DNA of 64,000 bases from a virus (lineage: Duplodnaviria; Heunggongvirae; Uroviricota; Caudoviricetes). Below, piece after piece: positions 2,437-38,912 of this stretch. The notes below the pieces were generated by a model, which was given only the letters and a program-made list of their open reading frames with translations, was not told the DNA's origin and did no database searches. The stretch lies in the IMG/VR virus record IMGVR_UViG_2913147268_000005. One strand, written 5' to 3'. The position numbers were made by a program, and so were the translations under genes. The number at the start of each line of letters is the position of its first letter. Position 1 is the stretch's first letter.

Positions 2437-2795
2437 TTCTTAGTCTCTGGTGCTTTCGGCATTACTGCCCAGTGAGTGATATTGACGTTTTCAAGGTCCC
2501 CGACCTGAAATGTCCACTGCCATTCTCCGGTTTCTTTTTGTCCCCAGGTGTACCAGAGAGAACGCCAGCCAATCAGCCAGCCTTCTCCGTTAGCATCAAA
2601 TAACAGAACACTTTCATTTGCTGGTGGCAGTTCAGCTGACACTGGTATTATTTTGCTTTCCAGTGCCGCACATTTAGCTTCAAGCGCGTCGAATTTACGT
2701 ACCAGGTACTCAGCATTTGTTTCGTTCACTTTCAGATCTCGCGGTACACATTTCCCGCGAAGAAACCCTTCCATTTCGAAAACATTTATGCGCAT
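2433..2795 (-). CDS. Hypothetical phage early protein (120 aa, YfdS-like by size and position)
   Basis: ORF overlaps both neighbours by a few nt in a co-directional early operon. Confidence 0.5.
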   Translation of the reverse strand: MRINVFEMEGFLRGKCVPRDLKVNETNAEYLVRKFDALEAKCAALESKIIPVSAELPPANESVLLFDANGEGWLIGWRSLWYTWGQKETGEWQWTFQVGDLENVNITHWAVMPKAPETKK

Positions 2796-3334
2796 TTGCG
2801 TAACTCCGATAATTCGTTAAAGCGTTCCATAAACATCCCGTAGGCATGGCCTGGAGCCAGTGGAATCACGTTGAACATCTCTGTTGCCGGGATACCTTCC
2901 AGCACAGGCCAGAAAGAGCCATCATCAAGCCCGAGATCGCGGCGTTCGGTTGCCAGCATGATGAGATCGGCATATTTCACGGGTGTACTCATAACCGGGG
3001 GTAACCCGTATTTCTCACGGATTACGGCGTCTATTTTTTCTTCCATCCGTTTATAGTCAGGAAGAAGGCGTTTCAGTGGAGCCGGGATGTCCTGGCAATA
3101 CGCTTCTGTTGCATCATGCATTAACGCTTCAAAAGCAAATTCCTGCGGTACCAGCTGGCTGCAAAGCACCGCATGTTGGGCGACGCTGTAGAAGTGTGAA
3201 AGATGGCCGGCAAAGCGACAGATATTTGAAAGGGAAACCGCGATATCGTTAATATCGATGTTGTCTTTATTTATCCTGTCATAGTAAAAATGCTTCCCGG
3301 AAAAAGTTTTAATAAATGACATTTTGTTCTCCAC
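2786..3334 (-). CDS. HD-domain phosphohydrolase (YfdR-like)
   Basis: 182 aa with His...His-Asp signature residues (HLSHFYSVAQHAV ... MHDATEAY) typical of HD-domain hydrolases. Confidence 0.7.
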   Translation of the reverse strand: MENKMSFIKTFSGKHFYYDRINKDNIDINDIAVSLSNICRFAGHLSHFYSVAQHAVLCSQLVPQEFAFEALMHDATEAYCQDIPAPLKRLLPDYKRMEEKIDAVIREKYGLPPVMSTPVKYADLIMLATERRDLGLDDGSFWPVLEGIPATEMFNVIPLAPGHAYGMFMERFNELSELRKCA

Positions 3335-3450: not shown

Positions 3451-4275
3451 TCAGGCGGTGAAAGTCCCAATAAAGGTTTCTACTTTGCTGTCCTTGAATT
3501 TCTCAACAAGCAGATCACGAAATTCGTTAGCCATATCTTCCTGCACCGCTTCCAGCTGAATAATGCGCAGAACCAGTACCGGACGATCGCCAGTGATAAT
3601 GCTGAGGCGTAATTTAAACGGACGTTCTTTCAGACCTTCAAACGGAACGCATTTAAACTCAAATGCCACTGGCATAATGTCTTTGGTCTTCGCTTCGACA
3701 GACTCCATCAGGGAGCGTTTGCCGCTGAAGTCATTATCTTCAAAATCAGCAGTCTGGTTTGCTTCAATCGTGATTTTACGGACCGCCGCAGCCGCTTTTG
3801 TTGCCTGAATGGCATCACCATTAGCATCAAAGCCCACAAGGTAGTCGGCCCAGTCTTCAATCCATTCTGCCAGAGACTTCTGGGAGTTACGCTCGCCGTT
3901 AACAGACAATAGTGCAGAGAACGGTGCTGTCTTTTTCAGTTTGAGAGTGGCGGTGTTATCTGCGTGACCTGGTTCATCAATAGTACCCAGGTTAAGCACA
4001 CTGACGGCACGCATATTATCGGCATCGATAAAGCAGCGGGTGCCTTCATCTGCAAGATCTTTAGAATAACGGGTAAAGTCATCGATGCTGGCAGTGGAAA
4101 GCGCACCACGGAAACGGAAGCGATTTAAATTAAATTTTTCCAGATCATGAATGCGGAAATTCTCAGGCAATGCCACAGCATCGGCACCAATCTTACTGAT
4201 AATTTCATTAACACCCTGAGCAGAAACAAGGGCATGGATTTGATTAATTGCGGTTGCGTCTAAGTTCTGAGACAT
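3451..4275 (-). CDS. Phage protein, YfdQ/DUF2303-like (274 aa)
   Basis: Size and position match the CPS-53-type early-left gene set; the family call is from recollection, not a search. Confidence 0.55.
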
Positions 4276-4340: not shown

Positions 4341-4703
4341 TTAACGACCTGCTGCGCGGAGTTTTCCGTCAGGTTCACCGGCAAGAGTCAGTAATTGTCC
4401 CTGGTCTTCCTGCAGAATAGTCAGGCGACCACCGCGATTGACATACATCGGCGTTTCGGTGGTGTCTTCTTCAGAAATTTTCCCGCGGTTAGTCGGGCGA
4501 ACATATGAGAGTTTGTGTTTGATTTTCACACGGTTCTCATCAAATGGTTCGATTTCCAGGTTGAGTGAGACCTTACCTTTGGTTTTCGTGTTCATCACAC
4601 CGGAAGCGACTTCACTGAGAACTGCGCCGATTTTGGTTTCAAATACGCCGCCGTCCAGCTCCCCGATAAATGCCTGCACATCAGTACTGCGTTCGCTAGC
4701 CAT
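4341..4703 (-). CDS. Hypothetical phage early protein (120 aa)
   Basis: Internal ATG at 4703 preceded by a GAGGAG RBS; the longer 226-aa frame upstream lacks coding character. Confidence 0.5.
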   Translation of the reverse strand: MASERSTDVQAFIGELDGGVFETKIGAVLSEVASGVMNTKTKGKVSLNLEIEPFDENRVKIKHKLSYVRPTNRGKISEEDTTETPMYVNRGGRLTILQEDQGQLLTLAGEPDGKLRAAGR

Positions 4704-4754
4704 TTTGCTGCTCCTCATCATATCGACCCTGCAAGGTCGGTTAGTTTCTCCACA

Positions 4755-4840
4755 AAACAGAGAAGAACACCTGCGGTGACTGCCGCCCGGATGGATTGGG
4801 TTATGAGCCCGTCGTCCGGTGATGCTCTTCTCTGTTTTGT
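4755..4840. repeat. Perfect 15-bp inverted repeat (ACAAAACAGAGAAGA / TCTTCTCTGTTTTGT) enclosing about 56 nt; candidate structured RNA or DNA element
   Basis: Read directly from sequence; lies in a roughly 470-bp stretch with no convincing ORF. Confidence 0.45.
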
Positions 4841-5104
4841 AAAAAGGACGGTACCAGCCGGAAGCAAGGGTACAAGCTGGTACCGCCAAGACTACACACA
4901 GCATAAAGTTGTGGTGCCGGGTGCCTCCCGGTGCCTGGCGAAGGTTGCACACTAGGCGGGTGGGTATCCACAGAAGGTCGACTGTCAGCCTCAACCTTAA
5001 CCCGCGTGCGCTGAGCCGCATTCACCACAACGCTAAGGATTCTCTCTGGTTGAAAATACTTAGCTGTTATGTGCCTGCTTTTAGCCACATCAGGCGAGGT
5101 GGAC

Positions 5105-5156
5105 CTGGTTATTCCCCAACAACAAGGATTCGGTTAATCTGGTTATCCCCAACAAC
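5105..5156 (+). promoter_or_regulatory. Two direct repeats (CTGGTTATTCCCCAACAAC / CTGGTTATCCCCAACAAC) upstream of the 5172 gene
   Basis: Near-identical 18-bp repeats about 34 bp apart, ending about 15 bp before the RBS of the downstream ORF. Confidence 0.35.
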
Positions 5157-5171
5157 GCAAAAGGAAAAGAA

Positions 5172-5606
5172 ATGTCCGGTAATATCTATACGCTGTACAA
5201 ATCCCACTGTGAAAATGTTGGAAAGTATCGGGGCATTGAAATCAGTGGGGTAGTGTCATCAGTCGAAATAAGCAAAGTTGAATCAAGGGCAACATTACTT
5301 ACTCTTTTGGACCTTGTCTTACATGAGCACCGGAAGAAATTCGGCACTCCCTATAATCAGTTGAATGGGAAAAAGGCTCTGGTTCACCTTATTCTGATGA
5401 AGCATCACTGGATGCCAAAACAGATTAATGAGATGAAATTTGATGAACTTCTTCTTTCAATTCAGGATGAACTCACACTTGATAAAATAAGCGTAACCGC
5501 CCAGAAATTTTTAGATTATCGAGACTGGAGATCACAAATTCATCACTTTGATGATTTTGACGAAAATGAATGGGATCCTAATTTGTCTGCACAATATCTA
5601 AAGTAA
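5172..5606 (+). CDS. Hypothetical protein (144 aa), opposite-strand moron inside the early-left region
   Basis: ATG with AAGGAAAAG RBS; AT-rich; convergent with and overlapping the 3' end of the leftward small gene. Confidence 0.45.
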   Translation: MSGNIYTLYKSHCENVGKYRGIEISGVVSSVEISKVESRATLLTLLDLVLHEHRKKFGTPYNQLNGKKALVHLILMKHHWMPKQINEMKFDELLLSIQDELTLDKISVTAQKFLDYRDWRSQIHHFDDFDENEWDPNLSAQYLK

Positions 5607-5784
5607 CATCCTGTGATAAAACCGTGATTTCCTGATCCAGTTTTTTTAAGGAGTCTATTGTTTCCTGTCGATAAGACAGCACTTCACGAAGCTGGTTTAT
5701 AGCTGCCAGCTTCTTTGTCATCCACTCATAAATTTCCTCATCTGTGTAGCCAGGCGCGACGATTTTGGGTTCTGTTTTGTGCAT
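5578..5784 (-). CDS. Small early-left protein (68 aa) at the position of antiterminator N
   Basis: ATG at 5784 with GAGGAG RBS 7 nt upstream; first gene downstream of the putative leftward promoter; no recognisable Arg-rich N motif. Confidence 0.4.
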   Translation of the reverse strand: MHKTEPKIVAPGYTDEEIYEWMTKKLAAINQLREVLSYRQETIDSLKKLDQEITVLSQDVTLDIVQTN

Positions 5785-5843
5785 TTCACATCTCCTCAAG
5801 TTATCAGTTACTTGTTGATGGGGACCAGATTGTTAAAGAGCTA

Positions 5844-5866: not shown

Positions 5867-5939
5867 GTTGCTAACGAATCATCCTGGACTTCATATGCCC
5901 CAGGCGGCTACTTCGTGGGCGTCCTGCCTGTTCGTTATC

Positions 5940-6031: not shown

Positions 6032-6658
6032 TTAGAGTTCGTATTGAACTCCTTTGACTACACCAATGATAAGGCAATTACCATTGATAGGGATGTTGGG
6101 ATACCGAGGATTTAATGGCACTAAAAACTTTTGAGGGCCATCGATGACTAATTTTTTTACTGTAGCTTCGTTTGTTCCATCAAGTCGAGCGATGACTATT
6201 TTTCCATGACGAGGTTCTGCATCTGGATCTACAATCACTGTTGCGCCTTCTGGTATTGTTGGGAGGCCATTAGGGTTAGTCATGGAGTCACCTTTAACCT
6301 CTAATGCAAATGAGTTATCACCAATCTTTAATGATGTATCTACCCACTTGTCCACTTCACTAAACACTTCTGCTGCCCTGCACTCAGTAAACTGCCCAGC
6401 CTGAACCCACGATATTACAGGAACTCTGCGCATGTTTGTGACGAGTTTGCCTTCAAACTCAGCACCATAAAGAATGTAATCTATTGACGTATTGAAGAAC
6501 TTCGCTAATTTCGAAAGTGCCTCCCCACCAGGGGTATTGATGTCTTTCTCCCAGTACCCCACAGCAACGTCGCTTACTCCACAAAATTTACCCAATTCTT
6601 TCTGGGACGTTCTGGTAACTCTTCTCAGAGCTTTTATACGCTGACCAACCGTTTCCAT
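6032..6658 (-). CDS. cI: CI-type phage repressor (HTH plus LexA-like S24 peptidase domain)
   Basis: 208 aa; N-terminal HTH (QKELGKFCGVSDVAVGYWE); C-terminal autocleavage domain with Ser (GDSM) and Lys (VIARLDG...KKL) regions; divergent from the cro-like gene. Confidence 0.85.
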   Translation of the reverse strand: METVGQRIKALRRVTRTSQKELGKFCGVSDVAVGYWEKDINTPGGEALSKLAKFFNTSIDYILYGAEFEGKLVTNMRRVPVISWVQAGQFTECRAAEVFSEVDKWVDTSLKIGDNSFALEVKGDSMTNPNGLPTIPEGATVIVDPDAEPRHGKIVIARLDGTNEATVKKLVIDGPQKFLVPLNPRYPNIPINGNCLIIGVVKGVQYEL

Positions 6659-6755: not shown

Positions 6756-6956
6756 ATGACAACTGACGATATCGAAAGCTACTTCGGCAGTATTGAGAAA
6801 GTTGCTGCTTTTTTCGGCATAACAACTGAAGCCGTTTATCAGTGGCGAAACCGTCCGGGCCAGTTAATTCCAAAAGGACGTGCAGCAGAAGCTGCATATA
6901 GAACTTGCGGACGGTTGCCATTTAAACCTGAGCTTTATGAAAAATCTAATGGATAA
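6756..6956 (+). CDS. cro: Cro-type small HTH regulator
   Basis: 66 aa; HTH-like segment (EKVAAFFGITTEAVYQWRN); divergent from cI. Confidence 0.7.
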   Translation: MTTDDIESYFGSIEKVAAFFGITTEAVYQWRNRPGQLIPKGRAAEAAYRTCGRLPFKPELYEKSNG

Positions 6957-7546
6957 ATCGATTAACAGAAACCACAGAACGATGAGGCTAACCGTGGGTA
7001 AGCATCACTGGAAAGTAGAAAAACAGCCTGAGTGGTACGTGAAAGCTGTCAGAAAAACTATCGCAGCGTTGCCGGGGGGGTTACGCTGAAGCTGCTGACT
7101 GGCTGGATGTAACAGAGAACGCATTATTTAACCGCCTTCGTGCCGATGGCGATCAGATTTTCCCGCTGGGATGGGCAATGATTTTGCAACGTGCTGGTGG
7201 AACTCACTTCATTGCAGATGCTGTGGCGCAGTCTGCAAATGGCGTCTTTGTGTCTCTTCCTGACGTCGAGGATGTGGACAACGCTGATATTAACCAGCGT
7301 CTGCTGGAAGTCATTGAACAGATCGGCAGTTATTCAAAACAGATTCGTTCAGCAATCGAAGACGGTGTAGTGGAACCGCATGAGAAGACAGCAATTAATG
7401 ACGAGCTCTACCTCTCAATTTCGAAGCTGCAGGAGCATGCAGCACTGGTCTACAAAATTTTTTGCATTTCAGAAAGTAATGACGCCCGCGAGTGTGCAGC
7501 TCCGGGCGCCGTGGCGTGTCGTGACTGTGGAGAAACTAACGCATGA
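6937..7546 (+). pseudogene. CII/YdaT-like regulator gene interrupted by a frameshift at a G7 homopolymer
   Basis: ORF 6937-7089 and the frame ending at 7546 join into one ~203-aa product if the G7 run at 7074-7080 were G6; the downstream part (ENALFNRLRADGDQIFPLGWAMILQ) resembles CII-type regulators. Confidence 0.4.
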
Positions 7547-32982: not shown

Positions 32983-33750
32983 ATGGGTAAAGGCAGCAGT
33001 AAGGGGCATACCCCGCGCGAAGCGAAGGACAACCTGAAGTCCACGCAGCTGCTGAGTGTGATCGATGCCATCAGCGAAGGGCCGGTTGAAGGTCCGGTGG
33101 ATGGATTAAAAAGCGTGCTGCTGAACAGTACGCCGGTGCTGGACACTGAGGGGAATACCAACATCTCCGGTGTCACGGTGGTGTTCCGGGCAGGTGAGCA
33201 GGAGCAGACACCGCCGGAGGGGTTTGAATCCTCCGGCTCCGAGACGGTGCTGGGTACGGAAGTGAAATATGACACGCCGATCACCCGCACCATTACGTCT
33301 GCAAACATCGACCGTCTGCGCTTTACCTTCGGCGTGCAGGCACTGGTGGAAACCACCTCAAAGGGGGACCGGAATCCGTCGGAAGTCCGCCTGCTGGTTC
33401 AGATCCAGCGTAATGGTGGCTGGGTGACGGAAAAAGACATCACCATTAAGGGCAAAACCACCTCGCAGTATCTGGCCTCGGTGGTGGTGGGTAACCTGCC
33501 GCCGCGCCCGTTCAATATACGGATGCGCAGGATGACGCGGGACAGCACCACAGACCAGCTGCAGAACAAAACGCTCTGGTCGTCATACACCGAAATCATC
33601 GATGTGAAACAGTGCTACCCGAACACGGCACTGGTCGGCGTGCAGGTGGATTCGGAGCAGTTCGGCAGCCAGCAGGTGAGCCGTAATTATCATCTGCGCG
33701 GGCGCATTCTGCAGGTGCCGTCGAACTATAACCCGCAGACGCGGCAATAC
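32983..33750 (+). pseudogene. J: Host-specificity tail protein J, N-terminal ~256 codons only
   Basis: Begins MGKGSSKGHTPREAKDNLKSTQLLSVIDAISEGP as lambda J (about 1130 aa); similarity stops after ...SNYNPQTRQY. Confidence 0.85.
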
Positions 33751-34417
33751 AGGCATTCTGTTCGCGGAACATTATCAGGGGCCGTATCGTCCGAAAGATG
33801 CCGGGTATGCGGCGAAGGGCAGTGCACTGAAACAGCATGTGATGGCCCCGCTGATTTCTTACTTTCGTGATGCGCGCGCGGCCCTGGGGATAACGGCAAA
33901 ACAGATTGCAGATGCCACAGGAAAGAAAAACATGGTGTCGCACTGGTTCAGTGCCAGTCAGTGGCAGCTACCGAACGAAAGCGATTATCTGAAATTACAG
34001 TCGCTGTTTGCCCGGGTGGCAGAAGAGAAACATCAGCGCGGTGAACTGGAAAAGCCCCACCACCAGCTGGTGGATACGTATACGTCACTGAACCGGCAGT
34101 ATGTGGAGCTGCAGAGTGAATATAAGCATCTGCGGCGGTATTTTGGTGTGACGGCGCAGGTGCCGTACACGGATGTGTGGACACATAAACCGGTGCAGTT
34201 CTATCCCGGGAAACATCCGTGCGAAAAACCGGCAGAAATGCTGCAGCAGATAATCAGCGCAAGCAGTCGTCCGGGTGACCTGGTTGCAGATTTTTTTATG
34301 GGCTCAGGTTCAACGGTAAAAGCGGCACTGGCGCTCGGGCGTCGTGCGATTGGCGTTGAGCTGGAGACCGGACGTTTTGAGCAGACAGTCAGGGAAGTTC
34401 AGGGTTTAATCGTTTGA
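33751..34417 (+). pseudogene. DNA methyltransferase C-terminal fragment (paralog of the 14952-16004 gene)
   Basis: Roughly 80% protein identity to the C-terminal 220 aa of the upstream methyltransferase; out of frame with the J fragment; internal ATG at 33839. Confidence 0.8.
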
Positions 34418-34466: not shown

Positions 34467-34542
34467 GGCCCTTTAGCTCAGTGGTGAGAGCGAGCGACTC
34501 ATAATCGCCAGGTCGCTGGTTCAAATCCAGCAAGGGCCACCA
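34467..34542 (+). tRNA. tRNA with CAU anticodon (ileZ-like tRNA-Ile2 or tRNA-Met)
   Basis: Cloverleaf with acceptor GGCCCTT/AAGGGCC, GTTCAAATCC T-loop, CTCATAA anticodon loop, 3' ACCA. Confidence 0.8.
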
Positions 34543-34642: not shown

Positions 34643-34719
34643 GCGTTGTTAGCTCAGCCGGACAGAGCAATTGCCTTCTAAGCAATCGGTCACTGGTTCG
34701 AATCCAGTACAGCGCGCCA
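34643..34719 (+). tRNA. tRNA-Arg (UCU anticodon)
   Basis: Cloverleaf with TAGCTCAGCCGGACAGAGC D-arm, CCTTCTAAG anticodon loop, GGTTCGAATCC T-loop, 3' GCCA. Confidence 0.8.
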
Positions 34720-35183: not shown

Positions 35184-35569
35184 ATACATATCTGGATTAT
35201 CACCGGTTACGGTAAAAAGTGATTGCTTACTGTTTTTGTGAATGGCATTGCTGCAGCCGGATAATGTCAGTGCTGGCTGACGGTGTGCTGGTGGCGGGTG
35301 TGGTGGTTGTTGCTTTCCCGTTGCTGAAAAAGAAAACGCCAGACTGTTAGCCGGGTATCAGTTAGCGGGAGAAATTTTTAAATACTTCACAATTCAGGCG
35401 GTTGATTGTTGTCTGGTTTGCGGGGAGTTTGTTAAAAGAAACTGGCATGGTGAATCCCCCTGTGCGGAGGGGCAATCAGCGAGTAGGTATATGGGATAAT
35501 CGCGGATTCAGGTGCTGGTACTGAATTCACCGGGAGGCACCCGGCACCATGCAATGGCACATAGCGCCA

Positions 35570-35600
35570 CTCTCCAGCCCCTCTCCGGAGGGGCTGTTTA
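35570..35600 (+). terminator. Hairpin (9-bp stem CAGCCCCTC/GAGGGGCTG) followed by a T-rich tract
   Basis: Perfect 9-bp stem with 4-nt loop; sits between the convergent 34827 and 35631 ORFs. Confidence 0.5.
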
Positions 35601-35630
35601 TATTGATTTTGTCAGATGTGAGTAAACTCC

Positions 35631-38590: not shown

Positions 38591-38713
38591 GAAACCAGAG
38601 CATGCACACACAAAAAAACCGCTTGCCATGCCGCAATCAGTCAGGTTACATTTCCGCTGCACCTCATAAAACGGGTGCCGGGTTTCGCAGCCTGCTGACT
38701 ACACAAGCGCACA

Positions 38714-38733
38714 ACCGCGCCAGCGGTTTTTTT
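38714..38733 (+). terminator. Intrinsic terminator candidate (ACCGC-GCCA-GCGGT plus T7)
   Basis: Hairpin plus T-run about 125 nt after the 38291-38590 gene. Confidence 0.45.
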
Positions 38734-38912
38734 GTGCGTACTGTATTGCCACGTTTTTTTCGCGTCAGAATTATGGCGGGGCGTACGGGGCCGACTTCGG
38801 TCGGGCCGGGTTCTTGTGTAGCCGGTACTGCGAACCTCGTACGTCTCGCCACCCACAGTTTCGCAGCTCTGGATGGTGAGTTTTCACAACTTACTACACA
38901 AGGGGCCACACC

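Follow-up and report, generated by a model that had tools for sequence, protein, structure and literature searches.

The small RNA STnc100 accumulates as an RNA of ~190 nt in enterohaemorrhagic Escherichia coli (EHEC), as seen by Northern blot (PMC5331693), and PasD, a small RNA (sRNA) detected by Hfq RIL-seq (in which interacting RNAs are ligated and then sequenced), has been described as an STnc100 homolog (bioRxiv 10.64898/2026.05.13.724894). These results apply to canonical relatives only, the published copies of which are located in the late region of lambdoid prophages, near Q, tRNAs, stx, an esterase gene and a holin gene. A discrete, Hfq-associated transcript of ~160-210 nt is what would be expected of a family member. 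Here we have analysed a gene-free stretch (positions 4704-5171) in the early-left arm of an E. coli lambdoid prophage, within which the 64-kb DNA under study (the window) begins. Where the pL leader ends, its minus strand holds three conserved RNA modules in series, the order of which is likewise conserved: an STnc100-like core, a linker with an intrinsic terminator, and a three-way structure that we call element H (Table 1). We consider it rather probable that the stretch is the non-coding distal part of this leader, in which a small RNA and its terminator form a barrier before yfdP and are followed by a processing hairpin, a function that we infer from sequence and structure.

A search of Rfam had been proposed in an earlier note on this DNA, made from the letters alone, and its outcome was mixed: on the minus strand a sub-threshold match to STnc100 and a weak one to DicF were obtained, and no family for element H. 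Rfam was searched at the gathering threshold over the whole window, and with E values up to 10 over 901 nt (4500-5400). In the latter search RF02076 (STnc100) was aligned end to end (model positions 1-206) over 5061 to 4838 with 44.2 bits and an E value of 3.8e-8, as compared to a gathering score of 47 for the family. The gathering-threshold scan of the window listed only the STnc100 copy at 35416-35605, a bona fide member (132 bits) in the late-regulatory region of a second lambdoid prophage.

The core nevertheless has the architecture of STnc100, with an outer helix round hairpins, the sequences UGGUGAAU and CACCGGGAGGCACCCGGCACCA, and a 3' terminator hairpin. When the core was aligned directly with the canonical copy at 35416-35605, the two were found to share the closing helix, the GAAU junction strand, UGGUGAAU and CACCGGGAGGCACCCGGCACCA. 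The closing helix GUUGUGGUG/CACCACAAC (5031-5023 / 4916-4908) encloses four hairpins, and GGUGAAUGCGGCUCAGCGCACGCGGG and ACCGGGAGGCACCCGGCACC are invariant. In the consensus fold of 24 distinct homologs the 9-bp closing helix and the four hairpins comprise 27 pairs, five of which exhibit compensatory changes; these are found in helices P1, P3 and P4, with exchanges of UA for CG and of GC for AU as examples from the closing helix. The core is thus a divergent member of the STnc100 superfamily as judged from sequence comparison, with the architecture of the family but below the Rfam threshold and outside the usual context. The likeness extends to PasD1 and PasD2, with the closing helix round UGGUG...CACCA, the GAAU junction strand and the 3' intrinsic terminator in common, and to the CCGGGAGGCACCCGG hairpin that in STnc100 adjoins the closing helix at its 3' strand; STnc100/PasD and the core are all found in lambdoid prophages of Enterobacteriaceae, and the models match reciprocally. 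On the other hand, the first and central hairpins of the core differ from those of STnc100, the core is followed by element H, and it is located in the pL leader upstream of yfdP, not in the late region as are the published copies. PasB, which was also considered as the identity of this RNA, was rejected since the paper places it within a structural-gene operon. A literature search on ECs1072/yfdP and on ST64B sRNAs gave nothing relevant.

Core homologs were recovered by pattern scans and BLAST. Among all scans of the analysis, the single one of genome contigs had too degenerate a pattern, with ~100 of 120 matches being chance hits outside Enterobacterales, and left ~20 usable. A covariance model (R2) built from the 24 early-left core homologs matched the canonical STnc100 (35442-35555) with 46.6 bits (E 2e-9), a divergent mEp460 core, for which there is no Rfam family match, with 28.6 bits (E 5.5e-5), and the spacer between dicF and dicB in the Qin prophage of K-12 with 69.6 bits (E 5e-15). 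The Rfam STnc100 model gives 34 bits for this spacer in K-12 MG1655, where the record annotates nothing. The Qin copy, with the order dicF, core, dicB, ends ~25 nt before the dicB start codon, and its P5 hairpin reads CCUGG/CCAGG instead of CCGGG/CCCGG. Other homologs are found in prophages of E. coli, Shigella and Salmonella, in Cronobacter phage phiES15, where core and terminator are located upstream of kil, and in phage P1 and its relatives, where the core lies in the ban operon ~30 nt before tciA. In two IMG/VR contigs the core has tRNA genes on both sides, with a tRNA 3' end upstream and a tRNA-Ser-like gene immediately behind the closing helix; in some phages it therefore belongs to a tRNA transcription unit. 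The hairpin directly 5' of the core is replaced by hairpins of different sequence in ST64B (UAAGAG/CUCUUA) and phiES15 (an 11-bp stem), and in P1 its place, directly 5' of the STnc100-like core, is taken by element H itself.

The second module consists of a single-stranded linker and an intrinsic terminator, the stem of which is a GGTACC palindrome that corresponds to the 3' terminator of the STnc100 model. The palindrome (4849-4858 / 4876-4885) is perfect over 10 bp and extends to 12 bp with one G-U pair. The earlier note had listed it as GGTACCAGC/GCTGGTACC, which is correct, and as an inner element, which it is not, as it adjoins the 15-bp inverted repeat described below and does not lie within it. 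The note's suggestion of a terminator was supported: the palindrome is followed on the minus strand by UCCUUUUU, and ST64B, phiES15 and other relatives have an unrelated hairpin plus U-run in the same place. A terminator scan missed the structure because it allows loops of 8 nt at most. Several of these relatives keep the linker sequence, and UGCUGUGUGUAGUCUU of the linker is found in ST64B, phiES15 and phiNP despite the different terminators. Replaced stems next to a kept linker are the pattern expected of a functional intrinsic terminator and a sequence-constrained single-stranded region (seed or Hfq site); the linker is thus a candidate for a seed or for Hfq binding, and RNase E might enter there. 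A search inside the window for targets with which the linker or the loop of element H could base-pair gave self matches only.

Element H follows directly after the U-run. Its helix P1 comprises 20 pairs, or at least 25 when UUUUU pairs with GGAGA, and the outermost 15 (4840-4826 / 4766-4752) form the perfect 15-bp inverted repeat ACAAAACAGAGAAGA (4752-4766) / TCTTCTCTGTTTTGT (4826-4840) that the earlier note had pointed out. The spacer between the arms is 59 nt, not about 56 as given there, and the repeat extends to 25-nt arms with 84% complementarity. Perfect inverted repeats of at least 15 bp with spacers of at most 100 nt occur only twice in the window and in none of 100 block-shuffles. Inside P1 are an arm P2, with the invariant ACGGGCUCAU..CCCAAUC and the apex GGG-CUCAUAA-CCC (4810-4798), and a variable hairpin P3 (4786-4773). 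The note had proposed a structured RNA, to be checked by folding and covariation, and both agree with it: the folded minus strand has a z-score of -6.4, and compensatory changes are found in the junction RNA as well as in the inverted-repeat hairpin. Loss of the paired arms in homologs, which the note had named beforehand as evidence to the contrary, was not observed, as the arms are conserved. Among 27 distinct homologs of H (from Escherichia, Salmonella, Citrobacter, Enterobacter, Kosakonia, Atlantibacter, Phytobacter, Trabulsiella and Mixta) 95% of the cells in paired positions are paired, as compared to 38-50% in slid-partner controls; 10 pairs have changed on both sides, and none of 500 shuffles reaches the covariation score. 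Alignment columns 27/104 are U-G in 26 of the 27 sequences, and because G-U pairs work on one strand only, the strand of H is minus. The strand, the relationship to STnc100, and the fact that palindrome and repeat belong to two separate modules were absent from the note.

A covariance model (R1) built only from early-left copies of H assigns 121 bits to the minus strand, as compared to 40 for the plus strand. Of the distinct early-left copies, 31 out of 33 directly follow a U-run. The same model finds Klebsiella-type copies in the late region (E 1e-7 to 2.5e-6), where 14 of 16 variants lie 6 nt after a tRNA 3' end, a copy in P1/JL22 (E 6.6e-6) and a Yersinia copy; one viral contig holds both an early-left and a late copy. 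With no Rfam 15 family matching at E values up to 10 and no description found in the searchable literature, H is a conserved RNA motif for which neither source gave a prior description. A second, weak H-like match in P1 (AF234172, ~69719-69832; 27 bits, E 4.5e-4) is on the strand of the ban operon, overlapping plp, the orientation of which is opposite.

A run of 14 nt at the apex of H, CGGGCUCAUAACCC, is also present in the initiator tRNA encoded by metZ of K-12; it covers three G-C pairs and the CUCAUAA loop. Three consecutive G-C pairs are the hallmark of the anticodon arm of initiator tRNA. The GGG/CCC pairs that make up this initiator-type arm are invariant in the 27 early-left homologs; as for yUCAU, 26 of these 27 aligned sequences have it, as do 192 of 193 catalogued copies of H. 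Loop positions 37-38 vary, with AA, UA, UC and AU being found. In the late-region copies P1 is merely GGCCUG/CAGGCC (6-7 bp), and a purine plus CCA follows in 15 of 16 variants. Neither ARAGORN, which finds tRNAs in the window only at 34467 and 34643, nor the Rfam tRNA model (4500-5400, E up to 10) calls H a tRNA. H is thus tRNA-like and not a tRNA, and the similarity may stem from function or from descent from a captured tRNA fragment.

The neighbourhood is consistent with transcription of the modules from pL. A candidate pL promoter surrounded by operator-like palindromes is found on the minus strand, and minus-strand transcription is therefore headed towards the stretch; this promoter, its leader and the perfect boxA in the leader, which is the sole boxA match in the window, are likely the source of minus-strand transcription into the modules. 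In ST64B and mEp460, a gene-free span of 430-700 nt, in which the core-terminator-H series is found, separates pL from a yfdP homolog, so that the stretch can be assigned to the distal part of a long non-coding pL leader. There is no annotated gene between the repressor gene and the yfdP homolog in phiNP either, and here linker, terminator and H are preceded by a different structured leader, not an STnc100-like core. The 73-amino-acid (aa) open reading frame (ORF) and the opposite-strand ECs1072-family gene appear to have been inserted between pL and the leader in the present window. The stretch had been placed between two early-left genes, which applies to its left neighbour yfdP but not to the ECs1072-family gene on the right, which is on the plus strand and transcribed in the opposite direction. 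Its higher GC content, also pointed out in the earlier note, amounts to 53-56% as compared to 38-47% in the flanks.

On this basis the following sequence of events is proposed. A polymerase that is not termination-resistant would stop at ~4841-4846, yielding an STnc100-type small RNA of ~200-290 nt that ends, like Hfq-binding sRNAs, in a 3' hairpin plus U-tail and could be trimmed to a DicF-like 3' fragment of ~65 nt. The same stop would keep yfdP-yfdQ-yfdR and the genes beyond silent. A read-through polymerase, expected after induction in view of the boxA in the pL leader, would transcribe H. In phage lambda, the U-run of the terminator tI in sib joins a longer duplex in read-through transcripts only, which creates a candidate RNase III site. 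The stem of H likewise takes in the terminator U-run, which pairs with GGAGAAA; its duplex, with at least 25 consecutive positions paired in minimum free energy (MFE) folds as compared to the ~20 bp expected of a sib-type hairpin, would form in read-through RNA only and is thus likely a processing site for a double-strand RNase (RNase III). With cleavage at H, the small RNA would be detached from the yfdP message and a compact RNA with an initiator-tRNA-like loop set free. Unlike H, sib is located downstream of int and destroys the upstream message, whereas H is upstream of its genes; H has a conserved three-way interior, which sib is without, and no sequence similarity was seen.

DicF, encoded in the dicB operon of Qin, offers a further parallel, as both are small RNA modules within pL-type operons of lambdoid phages, defective or temperate. 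Its ends are said to arise from termination plus processing by RNase III and RNase E (Faubladier et al. 1990), as in the scheme proposed here. The 3' halves are similar, with UUGGCGGUAUCAG in DicF and UUGGCGGUACCAG here before the U-run terminator, and the 5' half of DicF aligns with the linker in a weak Rfam match (RF00039; 4846-4900, minus strand). The latter reached only 19.4 bits (E 0.17), with a gathering score of 48 and 76.7 bits for genuine DicF. In K-12, a copy of the STnc100-like core comes immediately after DicF; the order is thus DicF-core in Qin and core-terminator here, and the candidate seed differs.

Several observations weigh against the proposed scheme. The STnc100 score falls short of the family's gathering score, and the core is found not in a late region but in the early-left arm, with the cI/pL region on one side of it and yfdP on the other. 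The promoter scan called no sigma-70 promoter upstream of the core, and with the 73-aa ORF and an opposite-strand gene in between, pL transcripts must run ~900 nt, partly in antisense, to reach it. There is no N-like arginine-rich ORF after pL, nor was any N-like antiterminator gene identified in the window, and read-through at the terminator is for this reason an assumption. Furthermore, the stem of H has only 6 bp in copies of the late region and 10-11 bp in the copy of P1, so that cleavage by RNase III cannot be the common function of the family. The 5' end, the 3' ends and the processing of the minus-strand RNA are all predicted from sequence, structure and context.

That the stretch might instead encode a small or frameshifted protein is suggested by annotation: the Prokaryotic Genome Annotation Pipeline (PGAP) places a 'frameshifted hypothetical protein' over 4718-5028 (minus strand) in an identical locus, and several phage records carry the label 'hypothetical protein'. 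The earlier note had seen no convincing ORF, and a conserved coding frame, which it had named as contrary evidence, does not emerge on comparison. Neither Pfam nor PHROGs has a family for any of the overlapping ORFs, an alignment with the Salmonella ST64B homolog (77% identical) has 31/35/31 substitutions by codon position and indels of 1, 1, 2, 20, 22 and 25 nt, and the longest ORFs differ in frame and extent among the window, ST64B and phiNP. With no Pfam match, no codon-position bias, non-triplet indels and shifting ORFs, the PGAP pseudogene is best read as an annotation artefact, and we give the protein reading hardly any credence. Hardly more credible, and highly improbable as well, is that the inverted repeats act as DNA, i.e. 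as a recombination site, a protein operator or a cruciform. The repeat is indeed perfect and long, and mosaic breakpoints of related phages lie near the modules, with similarity ending at e.g. ~4889 or 5102. However, the stems are kept by compensatory and strand-asymmetric G-U changes, in line with the 121 versus 40 bits of model R1 on the two strands, their length ranges from 6 to more than 25 bp with the loop sequence being what stays invariant, and the integrase gene is ~3 kb away at the prophage end. A recombination element, one of the options in the earlier note, is not supported by these data, and an attP or other recombination site was rejected because of the strand asymmetry and covariation.

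A more serious, though still unlikely, alternative is that the core is a cis-acting sensor (riboswitch-like or a protein-binding leader) and the 'small RNA' its OFF product, the core deciding on terminator formation in the lambdoid copies and on masking of the ribosome-binding site in the P1 and Qin copies. Its junction and loop sequences are invariant across P1, lambdoid phages and Qin while the flanks differ, and in all homologs with examined downstream sequence except 35416-35605 it is upstream of a same-strand gene (a tRNA gene at two loci). Two platforms are found, either a terminator (the window, ST64B, phiES15 and canonical STnc100) or a start codon 25-40 nt away; the Shine-Dalgarno sequence of P1 tciA is covered by a local hairpin, and toxic or accessory functions are often found among the genes downstream (dicB, kil and the TerB-like tciA). 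Yet no conserved antiterminator pairing connects core and terminator, as the terminators of the window and ST64B are wholly different and the cores nearly identical. The context suggests no ligand or binding protein, Hfq-dependent trans interactions of STnc100 and PasD are described in the literature, and at some loci the core has tRNA genes at its flanks instead of an mRNA after it. As to element H, it is a rather doubtful proposition that it is a functional mimic of initiator tRNA, binding the 30S P site or initiation factor 3 (IF3), methionyl-tRNA synthetase (MetRS) or an anticodon nuclease (VapC) and acting as a decoy or local translation modulator. The metZ identity with its three G-C pairs, the constancy of GGG/CCC and yUCAU, and the late-region copies after tRNAs, with a GGCC... 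stem and RCCA and found by a model of early-left copies only, are in its favour. On the other hand, neither tRNA search calls H, which has neither a cloverleaf nor a D arm or T loop, positions 37-38 of its loop vary, and its copy in the window carries a stem of 25 bp without CCA; the similarity might derive from a captured tRNA fragment without retained tRNA-like activity, and the literature search found no paper on initiator-tRNA mimics in phages. Were H such a mimic, it could be excised by tRNA-processing enzymes and then serve, during phage development, as a decoy for VapC-type nucleases or bind the 30S P site, IF3 or MetRS; in the RCCA-bearing relatives, coaxial stacks of P1+P3 and P2 would have roughly the dimensions of a tRNA. 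The combination of the two ideas, with H as a phage-made initiator-tRNA mimic and the STnc100 core as a cis-acting leader domain and not merely a trans-acting small RNA, we likewise hold to be doubtful.

Three other known RNAs invite comparison with the barrier and processing hairpin that we propose. The put RNA of HK022 is also a structured RNA in the pL leader of an N-less lambdoid phage, upstream of terminators. However, put is ~70 nt long with two stem-loops directly after the promoter, whereas the core is 130 nt with four hairpins ~900 nt from pL, and STnc100 RNAs terminate in vivo (PMC5331693). Identity with put was rejected: putL was located via the description in a cryo-EM paper (A3-G7 pairing with C15-U19), blastn gave only 10-nt chance words, forced alignments with the core and the pL-proximal leader were unconvincing, and no Rfam family matches put. 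The initiator tRNA, tRNA-fMet, and the C4 RNA of P1, which is processed by RNase P, resemble H through its 14-nt initiator identity and its late relatives in tRNA arrays, with their acceptor-like stem and RCCA. A retron msr-msd RNA was also considered and rejected, the neighbours being yfdP, yfdQ (DUF2303), yfdR and the ECs1072-family gene, with no reverse transcriptase.

A 601-bp query round the element is at least partly matched in 2860 of 5426 complete E. coli genomes, with at least 80% of the query matched in 1015. The element is also found in the Shigella serotype-converting phages SfII, SfIV and SfV, in Salmonella ST64B and in Stx2-converting phages, the database records being unannotated or labelled 'hypothetical protein'; in CPS-53 of K-12, checked as a model locus, yfdP is present and H and the core are deleted. 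Recognition of the RNA removes spurious ORF annotations and extends the STnc100/PasD family from the late region to the early-left leader, phage P1 and the dicF-dicB spacer of K-12, where genetics is easy. In H, a new conserved RNA motif, intrinsic terminators are linked with phage tRNA arrays and with a loop resembling that of initiator tRNA. If H or the core controls read-through or processing, this bears on how the early-left genes of N-less lambdoid phages are switched on, and if H is a tRNA mimic it would be a new kind of phage counter-measure or translation modulator.

Table 1. Features in and around the gene-free stretch, with positions in the window.
Feature	Position	Strand	Basis or remark
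yfdR	2786-3334	-	
yfdQ (DUF2303)	3451-4275	-	
yfdP	4341-4703	-	ORF list; PGAP annotation of identical locus
yfdP start codon	4703-4701	-	
Shine-Dalgarno GAGGAG	4716-4711	-	
Small hairpin CGACC-UUGCAG-GGUCG	4739-4724	-	
Gene-free stretch	4704-5171	read on -	
Element H, 105-nt three-way structure	4744-4848 (4848 to 4744)	-	directly after U-run; alignment, model R1, MFE fold
Intrinsic terminator, 12-bp stem GGCGGUACCAGC/GCUGGUACCGUC, 17-nt loop, CUUUUU	4841-4887	-	sequence, MFE fold
Single-stranded linker UUUAUGCUGUGUGUAGUCUU	4888-4907	-	
STnc100-like core, ~130 nt, four-hairpin junction	4906-5033 (5033 to 4906)	-	Rfam and consensus fold
5' hairpin GCUAAG...CUUAGC	5032-5064	-	directly before junction RNA; MFE fold
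Conserved block CCACCUCGCCUGAUGUGGCUAAAAGCAGGCACAUAACAG	5064-5102	-	5' edge of conserved module
Two direct copies CTGGTTATyCCCCAACAAC, 34 bp apart	5098-5116 and 5132-5150	+	just upstream of ECs1072-family gene
ECs1072-family gene	5172-5606	+	
73-aa ORF	5578-5799	-	
Perfect boxA GCUCUUUAACAA	5841-5830	-	in pL leader
Candidate pL promoter TTGCCA-17-TAGATT	5978-5950	-	promoter scan, sequence
CI-type repressor	6032-6658	-	
Cro-type gene	6756-6956	+	
CII-like gene	7178-7546	+	
tRNA(CAU)	34467-34542		
tRNA-Arg(UCU)	34643-34719		followed by DUF3927 (TciB-like) gene

At the edges of the stretch, relatives differ in the small hairpin and in the downstream gene after the invariant GGAGAAAC, and the integrase gene lies left of yfdR. 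The conserved block at the 5' edge of the module is common to Cronobacter phage phiES15 and to IMG/VR variants with different upstream sequence, and similarity to SfV/SfII-type phages stops at it; its sequence may form a small pseudoknot, with CCAC/GUGG interleaved with GCCUG/CAGGC. A hairpin-plus-AUACCACC motif of the relatives was considered as a promoter of its own and rejected, being in our reading without a usable -10 element. The two direct copies next to the ECs1072-family gene probably belong to the control region of that gene and not to the RNA modules, and may be candidate regulator-binding sites.

In the pL leader, boxA is preceded by a hairpin (5862-5843), the same hairpin-then-boxA order as in rrn antiterminators; read on the plus strand, this hairpin resembles a terminator. 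Directly after the candidate pL start an element of ~65 nt, AACGAACAGGCAGGACGCCCACGAAGUAGCCGCC...GGAUGAUUCGUU (5872-5935, minus strand), is conserved in ST64B and phiNP, and one of its hairpins covaries (CCUGG/CCAGG, CCGG/CCGG and CCCGG/CCGGG). It occupies the place of putL in HK022, the sequence similarity to which is unconvincing. The pL leader of phiNP (~750 nt, non-coding) contains GUCCGGUUCGAUUCCAGACACCA, i.e. the T-arm-like GGUUCGAUUCC followed by ACCA, which makes it a further tRNA-like fragment in these leaders.

In the second prophage, the order at the canonical STnc100 copy is Q, methyltransferase, tRNA-Ile(CAU), tRNA-Arg, DUF3927, STnc100, iraM, esterase and holin, and PGAP overlays this copy with a partial 'hypothetical protein' pseudogene. 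The tail-tip gene J of the first prophage, with a length of ~3.5 kb in strain THO-003, stops here after 295 aa (ORF 32983-33870) and is followed (~33870) by a methyltransferase fragment and the tRNA/STnc100 region of the other prophage, and this order therefore looks like a recombination junction between two prophages. The other perfect 15-bp inverted repeat of the window (38609-38623 / 38722-38736) brackets an isrK match (38659-38733), after which a match to the C4 antisense RNA is found (38769-38856).

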